Source of the DNA: Eledone cirrhosa
Taxonomy: Eukaryota
DNA length: 64,000 nt
NCBI GenBank assembly: GCA_964016885.1
Contig: OZ024760.1
Coordinates: 21,328,001 to 21,392,000, forward strand
Direction: 5' to 3'
The notes under the pieces were generated by a model, which was given only the letters and a program-made list of their open reading frames with translations, did not search any database and was not told the DNA's origin. Positions 62,469 through 63,908 of the stretch are shown here, piece by piece. Numbering within the stretch: position 1 is the first letter of the stretch; each line of letters opens with the position of its first letter. A program made the translations under genes and the position numbers.

Positions 62469-63908
62469 GCTTGGTATCAAAGTGAAAAGGTTTGGGAAGT
62501 TCTGGTGTAAGGTGTGAATGGCTGTTACTTTAAACTGACAGACCCACTTCTAGCACAGGTATAATACCCGGCTCAGGGCCACTGAAGATAGGTCACAACT
62601 ACTTGACTCTTATTTTAGACAGGACCCTATCCCCAACAGAAGAGGCTCAACAGTTGAAATGATTTCATCTTGCTCAGGTTTGAAAGATGAGAGGCAATAT
62701 CTAGAGACCATTTCTTCATCTCCATTAACCCATGTATTTTTTTCTAATCATATTTCGCTAACTCCTTTTGTAATTCAGTTACATCCATTGACCGCTTCAT
62801 TATACAATTAATATTTAATTAATTTTGTTTTCATTTTTTTTCCCTCACTTTTTATTTGTTGTTGTTTTTTATTGATTCTTTTTTTTTTTTTTTTTTTTTT
62901 TTTTTTCTGTTTTCTAGACTCCTTCTCAAAAGAAAGGCTGGATATTCTGTGAGTATATTGCTGTGGTTCTCTTTCTCTCTTATATTTTAATACAACAGAC
63001 AAAGACATGGCTGTGTGGTTGAGAAATTATATTATATTTTAGTATGACAGACATGGCTGTGTGGTTGAGAAGGTCTCTGTCTCTCTGTTATATTTTAGTA
63101 TGACAGACTGAGACATGGCTGTGTTGTTGAGAAAGTTTTAATACAACAAACTGACATGGTTTAAGACGTCTTTCTGTGTTACATTTTAATACAAGACAGG
63201 CGTGACTATGTAATTGAGAAGTTGTCTTTAGAATCGCATCGTCCCCAGTTCAATCATACTGTGTGGCACCTTAGGCAGGCCAATACCTTGGTAGTTGGAA
63301 GCTGTGTGGAAGACTGTTGCATTTGCCTGTGTCTGTCTTTCCATTTACTGTTTATGTCTCATAACTTAACAGTTTGACAAAAACAAAGATCAATAAAATA
63401 AGTAGTGGGCATGGCCACAGTCTAATGACTGACACCAGTAAAAGAATGTTTAAATAGATGAACTTATGAACAGCCCAGACATTACTTTGTGGTTAAAACA
63501 TTCTACTTTAGAACTATGAGACTCCTAATGAAGTTGGTATCGCTCATGTGTGGTTATTCTACTGGTGCAGTTTGAGTTTTGAAGGGGACTTTATGCCTAG
63601 GAGTAAGGCAATACTTTGGCTCTGTGCAATCTAAGTTCAAATCTTGCTTCCTATCACCAGAAAAACAGTGACGCTTCTTGCCAGGAATTTACAACCAGTA
63701 GATAGTATCAACAATGAAAATATTGTTTCCTTCGTTTGATCCAATCTGATGATATACAGACTGTGTCAGCAATGGAAACATTGTTTCTTCTCTTTTTATT
63801 ATTATTATTCTTTTTTGTTAAACTTTTTAAATTTTAGAAATCAGCAGAAAATATTAATTCGTTTTCACTTTTCTTTTCTTTTCTTTCTCTCTCTTGTCTC
63901 TAGGGTAA
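18577..63908 (+). CDS. Lam: Nuclear lamin (type V intermediate filament), 5'-partial spliced gene model: join(18577-18709,20334-20483,26102-26272,27587-27712,28499-28719,30077-30281,30813-30917,32165-32281,48811-48906,62918-62948,63904-63908)
   Basis: Manual splicing gives one open frame of about 452 aa. It has heptad coiled coils, the IF motif [18 protein letters not shown], the NLS GKKRK and a lamin tail domain ([30 protein letters not shown]). All introns are GT-AG with matching phases. Confidence 0.93.
18914..19500. repeat. 73-bp minisatellite, about 8 copies
   Basis: Unit cctagctaaacatttgtgatcaccctaccctgcatgacatcaccactgatggggttggtcaaatatatggacc. Confidence 0.95.
20334..20483 (+). CDS. 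Lam: Lamin exon, coil 1B end ([50 protein letters not shown])
   Basis: tattttcag acceptor and gtaaga donor; 150 nt; [17 protein letters not shown] is a hallmark lamin motif. Confidence 0.96.
20503..20865. repeat. About 120-bp tandem repeat, 3 copies
   Basis: acgccctgtccactctgtaaagtgat at about 20503, 20622 and 20743. Confidence 0.9.
22908..23250 (+). mobile_element. Full-length family-B CORE-like SINE
   Basis: ggaggcacatggcttagtggttagagc A-box, gagttcaattctc B-box, CORE-like body and simple-repeat tail; highly similar to 53297 and 54158. Confidence 0.8.
23989..24310. repeat. 48-bp minisatellite, about 6.5 copies
   Basis: Unit acctacatgaccactttacagtgtggactgggtgctttttgtcatgtc; related to the SINE-B 3' body on the minus strand. 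Confidence 0.92.
24352..24597. mobile_element. Palindromic MITE-like element
   Basis: tttacatgtta...tcaactc...gattggctgaaggtcatccatgg pairs with ccatgggtgaccttgagccaatc...gagttga...taacatgtaaa. Confidence 0.6.
24855..25870. repeat. 52-61 bp minisatellite expanded inside a TTAA-MITE, with a 410-bp higher-order duplication
   Basis: Unit ttatgtgaggtaaagcctttaccatgaaaatataatagtatatatagagtaatg; the gtaagataaa variant recurs at 25161 and 25571. Confidence 0.92.
26102..26272 (+). CDS. Lam: Lamin exon, linker L12 and coil 2 start ([19 protein letters not shown]...[14 protein letters not shown]...LFYETK)
   Basis: ttctttacag acceptor and gtaagt donor; 171 nt; RLADALxExR motif. Confidence 0.96.
26241..27200 (+). 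repeat. Tandem array (about 9-10 units of 90-125 bp) containing the lamin exon 3' end and 5' splice site
   Basis: gaagaagtgga(a/g)ctgttttatg(a/g)gactaaa|gtaa repeated, with (GT)n/(GTCT)n spacers. Confidence 0.93.
27587..27712 (+). CDS. Lam: Lamin exon, coil 2 ([42 protein letters not shown])
   Basis: atcctacag acceptor and gtaatt donor; 126 nt; phase 0/0. Confidence 0.93.
27805..28432 (+). repeat. 175-bp tandem repeat (about 3.5 copies; dimer of about 88-bp subunits) derived from a LINE tail
   Basis: agactgagatggctgggtcatgtgttgaggaaggat ([16 protein letters not shown]) recurs every 175 nt. Confidence 0.9.
28499..28719 (+). CDS. Lam: Lamin exon, coil 2 end with IF consensus ([15 protein letters not shown]...[22 protein letters not shown])
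   Basis: tatttttag acceptor and gtaagg donor; 221 nt; [11 protein letters not shown]. Confidence 0.98.
29668..30045 (-). repeat. Degenerate inverted copy of the 88/175-bp repeat
   Basis: ccttcctcaacacatgac(c/t)cagccatctc is the reverse complement of the 27805-28432 unit. Confidence 0.8.
30077..30281 (+). CDS. Lam: Lamin exon, tail with CDK-type site SPPR, NLS KKRK and start of the Ig-like domain
   Basis: ttccttag acceptor and gtcagt donor; 205 nt; [22 protein letters not shown]...[20 protein letters not shown]. Confidence 0.96.
30377..30710. repeat. 146-bp tandem duplication, about 2.3 copies
   Basis: aagatactctcatg(g/a)aatgaccaaatga at 30377, 30523 and 30669. Confidence 0.88.
30813..30917 (+). 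CDS. Lam: Lamin exon, tail domain ([35 protein letters not shown])
   Basis: tttcttgtag acceptor and gtaagt donor; 105 nt. Confidence 0.96.
31438..31810 (-). mobile_element. Family-B CORE-like SINE, antisense
   Basis: Reverse complement of the 22908, 53297 and 54158 copies, with an internal duplication. Confidence 0.8.
32165..32281 (+). CDS. Lam: Lamin exon, tail domain ([39 protein letters not shown])
   Basis: cttcttcag acceptor and gtgagt donor; 117 nt; HSPPTDLV as in lamin tails. Confidence 0.96.
32940..33335 (+). mobile_element. Two family-A SINE copies directly upstream of the satellite
   Basis: gtg(a/g)attggcagtatcggtagag...ctgagttcaaa heads at about 32940 and 33145. Confidence 0.8.
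33356..48413 (+). repeat. About 15-kb intronic satellite, roughly 170 monomers of 77/87/89/98 bp, derived from a tRNA-SINE head
   Basis: Near-invariant 66-bp core cagag(t/c)gttggacagttacagcccctttacgttctgtgttcaaatccaccccctttcataaagaac plus linker modules of 12, 11 and 9 bp; monomer count estimated from length. Confidence 0.98.
48811..48906 (+). CDS. Lam: Lamin exon, end of tail domain ([32 protein letters not shown])
   Basis: taattttcag acceptor and gtgagt donor; 96 nt; completes the conserved NSTG(D/E)E(M/V)A strand. Confidence 0.88.
48950..49306. repeat. (TA)n compound microsatellite
   Basis: Direct reading. Confidence 0.97.
50311..50651. mobile_element. Inverted-repeat element with about 80-bp arms
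   Basis: tacaaatgaatatatgatagggataaaca...gttagctagatt and its near-perfect reverse complement at about 50570-50650. Confidence 0.8.
50935..51250 (+). mobile_element. RTE-like LINE 3' fragment
   Basis: [29 protein letters not shown]...[17 protein letters not shown]. Confidence 0.8.
51539..52072. mobile_element. Tigger/pogo-like non-autonomous DNA transposon
   Basis: TA-cagtaatccctcg...cgggagattactg-TA termini. Confidence 0.7.
53297..53622 (+). mobile_element. Family-B CORE-like SINE
   Basis: Highly similar to 22908-23250. Confidence 0.8.
53750..53776 (+). CDS. Candidate 27-nt symmetric lamin micro-exon (TYSYSRRHL)
   Basis: Branch-like tactaag, long pyrimidine tract ending ccag, donor gtacgt, phase 0/0; no homology support. 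Confidence 0.45.
54158..54490 (+). mobile_element. Family-B CORE-like SINE
   Basis: Highly similar to 22908-23250; (tga)n tail. Confidence 0.8.
54507..55145 (+). mobile_element. Decayed RTE-like LINE fragment (RT C-terminus to 3' end)
   Basis: [41 protein letters not shown] and GVGRPRKSW motifs with frameshifts. Confidence 0.82.
55886..56130. repeat. (TA)n-rich compound microsatellite
   Basis: Direct reading. Confidence 0.95.
56385..56679. repeat. Inverted repeat with about 110-bp arms, each containing a minimal hammerhead-like motif (possible Penelope-like terminal-repeat relic)
   Basis: Arms about 56385-56495 and 56572-56679 are reverse complements; both carry CTGATGA...GAAA cores. Confidence 0.7.
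56791..57269 (+). mobile_element. Non-autonomous Helitron-like element
   Basis: A|TC 5' end (tctatttatataaag) and CTAG|T 3' end; no target-site duplication. Confidence 0.6.
57292..57870 (-). mobile_element. Second Helitron-like copy of the same family, tail-to-tail with the first
   Basis: actagccgaatta is the reverse complement of taattcggctagt; the outer ~250 bp also match in inverse. Confidence 0.6.
58520..58712. repeat. Palindromic MITE-like element
   Basis: gtttcaaggcccaaatttgacca / tggtcaaatttgggccttgaaac plus flanking imperfect arms. Confidence 0.7.
59258..59412. repeat. Palindromic MITE-like element
   Basis: gatgacaaataaaa...aggatatttcaacata / tatgttgaaatatcct...ttttatttgtcatc. Confidence 0.7.
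59735..60005 (-). mobile_element. LINE 3' tail fragment
   Basis: [18 protein letters not shown] resembles the RTE-type C-terminal motif. Confidence 0.5.
60010..60258. repeat. Second array of the 48-bp MITE-end minisatellite, about 5 copies
   Basis: Same unit as 16030-16538. Confidence 0.9.
61170..62110. repeat. Long inverted repeat; arms about 61170-61470 and 61822-62110
   Basis: ggttatggacctgactccagtatc...cagactggtgatgtg and taggcattggccctatttttttgtgtgtggac recur as reverse complements. Confidence 0.85.
62918..62948 (+). CDS. Lam: Lamin penultimate micro-exon ([10 protein letters not shown] plus first base of W)
   Basis: Long T tract and tttctag acceptor, gtgagt donor; 31 nt; phase 0 in, phase 1 out. 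Confidence 0.75.
63904..63908 (+). CDS. Lam: Coding part of lamin terminal exon (GG TAA completes Trp and stop); 3'UTR continues past the window end
   Basis: About 40-nt pyrimidine tract ending ctctag; T|GG TAA fits the phase-1 donor at 62948. Confidence 0.72.

Follow-up and report, generated by a model that had tools for sequence, protein, structure and literature searches.

The lamin of the octopod Eledone cirrhosa is predicted to carry the CaaX-less, basic-aromatic tail described for cephalopods

The lamins of all 23 cephalopods studied by Stick and Peter in 2022, Nautilus included, share the C-terminal consensus TPsQqkkgWlFW* (PMC10125929, Table 3). In these genes the last lamin exon contributes only the second and third bases of a Trp codon before the stop; the optional exon 11 of the O. 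vulgaris lamin has also been drawn, and the aromatic residues have been suggested to mediate membrane association, a proposal for which the authors call for experimental proof (PMC10125929). Earlier cases of lamins lacking CaaX were compiled by Kollmar in 2015 (PMC4448529). A preliminary description of the present locus had called the class not wholly new. That is correct insofar as aromatic CaaX-less lamins were known, but it overstated the novelty: for cephalopods, the CaaX-less tail, the split Trp codon and the idea of an anchor are already in print (PMC10125929). Judged against the published portions available to us, E. cirrhosa is probably one more species in this pattern.

The window, i.e. 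the whole 64-kb stretch of E. cirrhosa DNA that was analyzed, contains 12 lamin exons on the + strand, between 18577 and 63908, that are joined by predicted splicing into one open lamin reading (Table 1). This reading comprises 461 or 452 residues, with or without a 9-residue exon, and ends in …KKGWIFW* in both versions. An AG acceptor precedes each of the 12 exons and a GT donor follows each of the 11 internal ones. With four cephalopod lamins as queries, tblastn recovered nine upstream exons and matched the tail exon weakly. Exon numbers are presumptive, counted back from exon 10; a search of the 64-kb window for the lamin head gave no match, exon 1, where the head domain with its CDK1 site would be encoded, lying outside the window. 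As for the domains of the encoded protein, PF00038, the intermediate-filament rod, matched 3 of the 7 exon pieces scanned (one above the cut-off), the RGKKRK between rod and tail domain aligns with RGKKRK of Octopus as an NLS with predicted import, and by tblastn exons 8 and 9 share 74-83% identity with the Ig-like lamin tail domain of octopods. We consider this gene structure, with its predicted splicing, to be nearly certain.

Table 1. Features of the lamin gene in the window (positions are those of the window).
Feature	Position	Strand	Basis
Lamin exon 2 (rod)	18577..18709	+	tblastn, splice sites
Lamin exon 3 (rod)	20334..20483	+	tblastn, splice sites; Pfam Filament E 3e-8
Lamin exon 4 (rod)	26102..26272	+	tblastn, splice sites, Pfam scan
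Lamin exon 5 (rod)	27587..27712	+	tblastn, splice sites
Lamin exon 6, rod end (12 residues)	28499..28719	+	Pfam Filament E 5e-14, above cut-off; tblastn
Lamin exon 7, basic NLS-like RGKKRK (30126-30143) and start of lamin tail domain	30077..30281	+	tblastn, splice sites
Lamin exon 8 (lamin tail domain)	30813..30917	+	tblastn; Pfam LTD E 0.004, below cut-off, 35-aa piece
Lamin exon 9 (lamin tail domain)	32165..32281	+	tblastn, splice sites
Lamin exon 10, ends in phase 0 (…DSIDSS)	48811..48906	+	tblastn, splice sites
Optional lamin exon 11, 27 nt, TYSYSRRHL, phase 0/0	53750..53776	+	resembles VYQYSRRHL of Octopus isoform X1; acceptor rank 3/833
Lamin exon 12, ten residues and first base of Trp codon	62918..62948	+	acceptor rank 1/833
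Terminal lamin exon 13, coding part GG TAA (rest of Trp, stop)	63904..63908	+	acceptor rank 2/833
Possible relic of ancestral CaaX exon (candidate)	63904..63934	+	GKR in phase 0, ESLAVMP* in frame +1; null tests

The tail exon is a 31-nt segment positioned between a long poly-T tract ending in ctag and a gtgagt that follows directly, and it encodes ten residues plus a single T. Immediately after the AG that ends at 63903 comes GG TAA, dividing the Trp codon 1+2 across the last intron (T|GG TAA) and closing the reading with a stop. The resulting C-terminus of 11 residues, which is predicted to lack CaaX, fits the consensus TPsQqkkgWlFW*. When all 833 AGs downstream of exon 10 (48907-64000) were ranked with a small matrix trained on only nine homology-proven acceptors, the acceptors of the tail, terminal and optional exons came first, second and third; the donor at 62948 ranked 5th among 859 GTs and the weak donor at 53776 ranked 79th. 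Because exon 10 and the optional exon both end in phase 0, the junctions 48906/62918 and 53776/62918 are both in frame. The E. cirrhosa genome does contain the optional exon, placed after exon 10 and before the tail exon, and its alternative use is known only from relatives. The preliminary description had proposed precisely this aromatic, CaaX-less ending from a micro-exon and a split Trp codon, with a strong acceptor and gtgagt donor around the 31 nt, an acceptor at 63903 and two alternative upstream junctions, and all of this was borne out by exons that join in an open reading at top-ranked acceptors. The spliced W-I-F-W ending itself has been shown in relatives only and is predicted for E. 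cirrhosa. A search for sequencing runs gave four rows from one study and listed no RNA, an outcome that has no bearing on expression.

Comparison with fetched proteins placed the predicted lamin at 80-83% identity to those of Octopus and Argonauta, 66% to decapodiform lamins and 44-51% to two bivalve-type lamins; in the tree it groups with Argonauta and Octopus (100/100). A W-[IL]-F-W end closes 18 of 19 full-length cephalopod-type lamins, a count that leaves out the N-terminal fragments P0134 and P0136, and none of the 19 has a CaaX end; a C-x-x-x end is present in 96 of all 126 proteins fetched. The remaining one, P0009, is an O. bimaculoides model of older date that runs past exon 11 into the intron. 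Its read-through matches the intron of the window (50% over 37 residues, E 2e-5), so conservation extends into the intron flank that follows the optional exon. The expectation that annotation would miss the ending thus holds for this older model alone, given that W-x-F-W is present in the models that NCBI now offers for O. bimaculoides, O. sinensis, O. vulgaris and Argonauta. Octopus models come in pairs of 590/599 and 593/602 aa that differ by VYQYSRRHL, the counterpart of the optional exon of the window. Among seven aligned cephalopod proteins, W-x-F-W is invariant in all seven and the linker preceding it varies.

We scanned 48907-64000 for a CaaX end, a range fixed by the window, which stops at 64000, 92 nt past the lamin stop. 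Among 19 C-x-x-x-stop strings on the + strand, only two, ending in CFKY and CVYI, have a phase-0 AG with at least 10 upstream pyrimidines, and both have exactly 10. A phase-0 CaaX exon within this range was rejected. Skipping the tail exon yields a 16-residue end, again without CaaX. The statement in the preliminary description that the range holds no CaaX exon is therefore upheld for any credible phase-0 exon, but it overlooked the sole exception: splicing from 62948 to a weak AG at 63200 would build …GWIFCVTM* across the junction. The gene might accordingly also make a prenylated isoform, via 63200 or an exon beyond the window, that carries the other form to the membrane. Of 400 intron shuffles, 3 produced a junction-made CxxM* and 14 produced a CxxM* of any kind; annelids do keep both forms (PMC10125929). 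Nevertheless, acceptor 63200 scores -1.4 vs. 8.7 for 63904, ranks 10/65 in its intron and 78/833 overall, and sits inside a diverged copy (~50 nt) of a local repeat; a looser CaaX pattern appeared in 62 of 400 shuffles, and CaaX is absent from all 19 cephalopod-type proteins. We conclude that the CVTM* ending is probably due to chance and that a prenylated isoform of this gene is very improbable.

How the lamina attaches to the membrane without prenylation is a question posed by the authors of PMC10125929, for which the cephalopod tail is a clean reagent. We surmise, with a probability of roughly 60%, that the basic-aromatic tail putatively anchors the lamin to the inner nuclear membrane without a lipid. 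The NLS would bring the lamin into the nucleus, the two lysines of the tail would bind acidic lipid head groups and W-I-F-W would sink into the bilayer interface; filament assembly would add avidity, multiplying the weak grip of a single tail over many tails, and the tail would replace the farnesyl group. In agreement with this, WIFW has an estimated total of -5.1 kcal/mol on the Wimley-White interface scale (with the terminal carboxylate left out), and none of the 2305 windows of four residues taken from four lamin bodies attains it. Similar basic-aromatic ends are found where CaaX is missing, in three transcript-like contigs, Solemya and insect isoforms as well as in rotifers and annelids (PMC10125929). 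Counting against the anchor, a Drosophila mutant with CaaX-less Lamin B still has peripheral Lamin C (PMC7529411), and the peripheral location of plant NMCP proteins has been tied to motifs other than the similar C-terminal one (PMC6506774).

W-x-F-W is conserved so strictly that a pocket on a protein explains it no less well than a lipid interface. [quoted passage not shown] The aromatic patterns of other lineages, however, differ widely (WFWWNK, WSFFSMLR, YLYPY, FLFF), a variety that suggests a common physical property more readily than a single pocket, and we regard docking as unlikely. Targeting to the rim might also reside in the rod or tail domain, the aromatic end serving otherwise or as an accessory, e.g. 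in filament packing; lamin C, which lacks CaaX, is brought to the rim of lamin-null cells by its rod (PMC13741955, section 11). This result and the bdelloid rotifer lamins, which have neither CaaX nor aromatic ends, speak for such targeting and likewise against the anchor. Invertebrate lamins are generally B-like. Non-farnesylated B-type lamins do not reach the rim (PMC13741955), and aromatic ends have been gained repeatedly where CaaX was lost, which argues for replacement of function and leaves us to view rim targeting by the rod or tail domain as quite improbable. A lipid-free anchor is the reading that we retain for the basic-aromatic tail.

Beyond the known pattern, the value of this analysis lies in three leads that do not appear in the available portions of PMC10125929, namely a relic of CaaX, hymenopteran isoforms and the tail of Solemya; these could matter more than the locus itself. 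As to the first, we considered the doubtful idea that the terminal exon is a decayed ancestral CaaX exon, frozen after the switch. The aromatic exon would have been inserted before the CaaX exon, as in annelids, with the GG of the first Gly codon completing the last Trp; the Trp codon would then be split in every cephalopod because the tail took the GG of that Gly codon. In phase 0 the terminal exon reads as 16 residues beginning with GKR, and in frame +1 as VNESLAVMP*, with ESLAVM, a stop one codon later and Leu at the position of Cys; CaaX ends of molluscs for comparison are GKRSECSVM (freshwater mussel) and GREKEGCAVM. Resemblance was scored in a test designed post hoc, with a profile of 71 CaaM tails and with 1350 sites and 1500 shuffles as controls. 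Without a frameshift, the phase-0 score was not significant, being reached by 482 of the 1350 control sites and 946 of the 1500 shuffles. With one frameshift, the score of 7.5 was matched by 4 sites and 15 shuffles, vs. a median of 24 for true CaaM tails; across 24 settings of the test the control count ranged from 0 to 61 of 1350, with at most 14 in 20 of them.

Other observations on the relic are divided. The order of the exons is like the annelid arrangement (PMC10125929), and in insects a Gly marks the point of divergence between CaaX exons and the alternative form. On the other side, Cys is absent from the terminal exon, and a neutral relic should not have survived since the split from Nautilus. 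When metagenome contigs were scanned for lamin transcripts of cephalopods, so as to compare 3' UTRs, eight loci at 36-53% identity were returned, all of them too distant to be cephalopod. The words 'relic' and 'remnant' are absent from the available text of PMC10125929, which in these portions does not discuss a cephalopod CaaX relic. If true, a readable relic would reveal the way in which the switch was completed in cephalopods.

The second lead comes from insects. According to database models, the lamin of many Hymenoptera occurs in two isoforms, the CaaX form and a second one with RRYLYPY or RRFLFFQ at its end, and braconid isoform pairs diverge after HHQQ into either a CaaX end or KRFFFL, RRFLFFQ or RRFLFFR. 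A search with the region around one of these aromatic tails gave 107 matches, comprising 60 CaaX ends, 31 basic-aromatic ends by our own rule and 16 others, numbers that are not frequencies inasmuch as the query enriches for the aromatic type. The 31 basic-aromatic ends are mostly RRYLYPY, from sawflies, ants, bees and wasps; the 16 others include …GRSFWLW of Hermetia and …GRLFSFW of Bradysia. Hymenoptera are nowhere mentioned in the portions of PMC10125929 available, where no cases outside Lophotrochozoa are known, a statement that mainly concerns exclusive use. A full-text literature search, covering the main texts of papers free of subscription, returned nothing on hymenopteran aromatic lamin isoforms. 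Should aromatic and CaaX isoforms coexist in bees, ants, wasps and sawflies, the intermediate stage that has been proposed would be represented outside Lophotrochozoa too, among insects open to genetic work (Nasonia). As for the third lead, model P0016 of the bivalve Solemya velum, a single hypothetical protein, ends in GHRRKWFFF and may hide a CaaX isoform. Solemya does not occur in the available parts of PMC10125929 and its supplement, in which CaaX-less cases among molluscs are limited to cephalopods. If the relic is real, then it and the tails of Hymenoptera and Solemya would mean that basic-aromatic ends arose time and again as an alternative means of anchoring lamins, far beyond the reported groups.

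Compared with known systems, the closest are the cephalopod CaaX-less lamins themselves, whose consensus, division of the Trp codon over the last two exons, single optional exon 11 (in octopods) and length difference of nine residues (590/599 aa in the published forms; PMC10125929) recur in the predicted E. cirrhosa lamin. Its exact 11-residue end is absent from the 24 cephalopod rows of Table S1 examined, in which the nearest tails are TPSQKKSWIFW and TPQKKGWIFW (PMC10125929). The two-isoform lamins of annelids (Terebelliformia, Capitella, Urechis) likewise have an aromatic exon between two introns ahead of the terminal exon, but their terminal exon keeps an intact CaaX, so that skipping produces the CaaX form (PMC10125929), whereas skipping in E. 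cirrhosa leads to no CaaX. The CaaX lamins of other molluscs have the same rod, NLS and tail domain, with 44% identity between the E. cirrhosa lamin and P0004, and differ in ending with CaaM. The plant protein NMCP1, with its C-terminus GKKLWNFLTT, also closes a lamina protein with basic and then aromatic residues; it is not an intermediate-filament protein, and the likeness is an analogy only. Within this series, the present finding adds one octopod to the published cephalopod pattern.

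Among database proteins, a basic-aromatic tail was found to end a second lamin isoform in Hymenoptera, with the same species also harboring a CaaX isoform. RRYLYPY is the commonest of these endings, with RRFLFFQ and KRFFFL in braconids and RRTYWFNPF in Nasonia; by our own rule, basic-aromatic tails were present in 31 of 107 hits, which is not a frequency because the query enriches for this type. Full-text searches of open-access papers did not find these hymenopteran aromatic isoforms in print.

In its readings GKR and ESLAVMP followed by a stop, the terminal exon of the Eledone lamin gene is similar to a mollusc CaaX exon that has decayed, with post hoc tests on this likeness giving a mixed outcome. 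In addition, a weak alternative acceptor, sitting within a diverged local repeat, would end the protein in a CaaX-like motif, CVTM followed by a stop. Comparison via the read-through model P0009, an older O. bimaculoides lamin model, revealed that the intron flank 3' of optional exon 11 is conserved between the two species, and this sequence conservation suggests candidate splicing control elements. We also noticed that intron 9 is filled by a tandem array and that intron 4 contains several tandem copies of the final codons of exon 4 together with its donor, a repetition that creates decoy donor sites. Two open stretches elsewhere in the window look like putative remnants, one of a hAT transposase and one of a retroelement.

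Features of the window, with contigs and database entries noted alongside
Feature	Location or entry	Remark
Terminal exon	63904-63934	
Alternative acceptor	63200-63213	
Conserved intron flank	53777-53870	
Tandem array	33365-48404	intron 9; ~15 kb, 77-98-nt units
Copies of exon 4 end and donor	26237-27200	intron 4
Open stretches	10642-11590; 4443-4943	
Transcript-like metagenome contigs	L001:2062; L002:2015; L003:2013	encode CaaX-less lamins
Hymenopteran lamins	P0104; P0128; P0130; P0156-P0214	

Three further lamins (P0108, P0110 and P0123), one of them named as a spider (Cupiennius) protein, have an acidic CaaX-less tail, …SEIHYIEE.

Among non-cephalopod molluscs, a lamin model from the bivalve Solemya velum (P0016, KAL5004817.1) is aromatic and CaaX-less at its end, GHRRKWFFF; the 2022 survey (PMC10125929) does not include this genus. 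The metagenome lamins end in SRFFGIW, KLMGGLWR and QKLFGLWKS, the last resembling monogonont rotifer tails in Table 2 of that survey. Among Diptera, the CaaX-less lamins of Hermetia (P0232, …VGRSFWLW) and Bradysia (P0243, …VGRLFSFW) have tails near that of cephalopod lamin in character, and a similar aromatic anchor may also be present in fly lamin C types.
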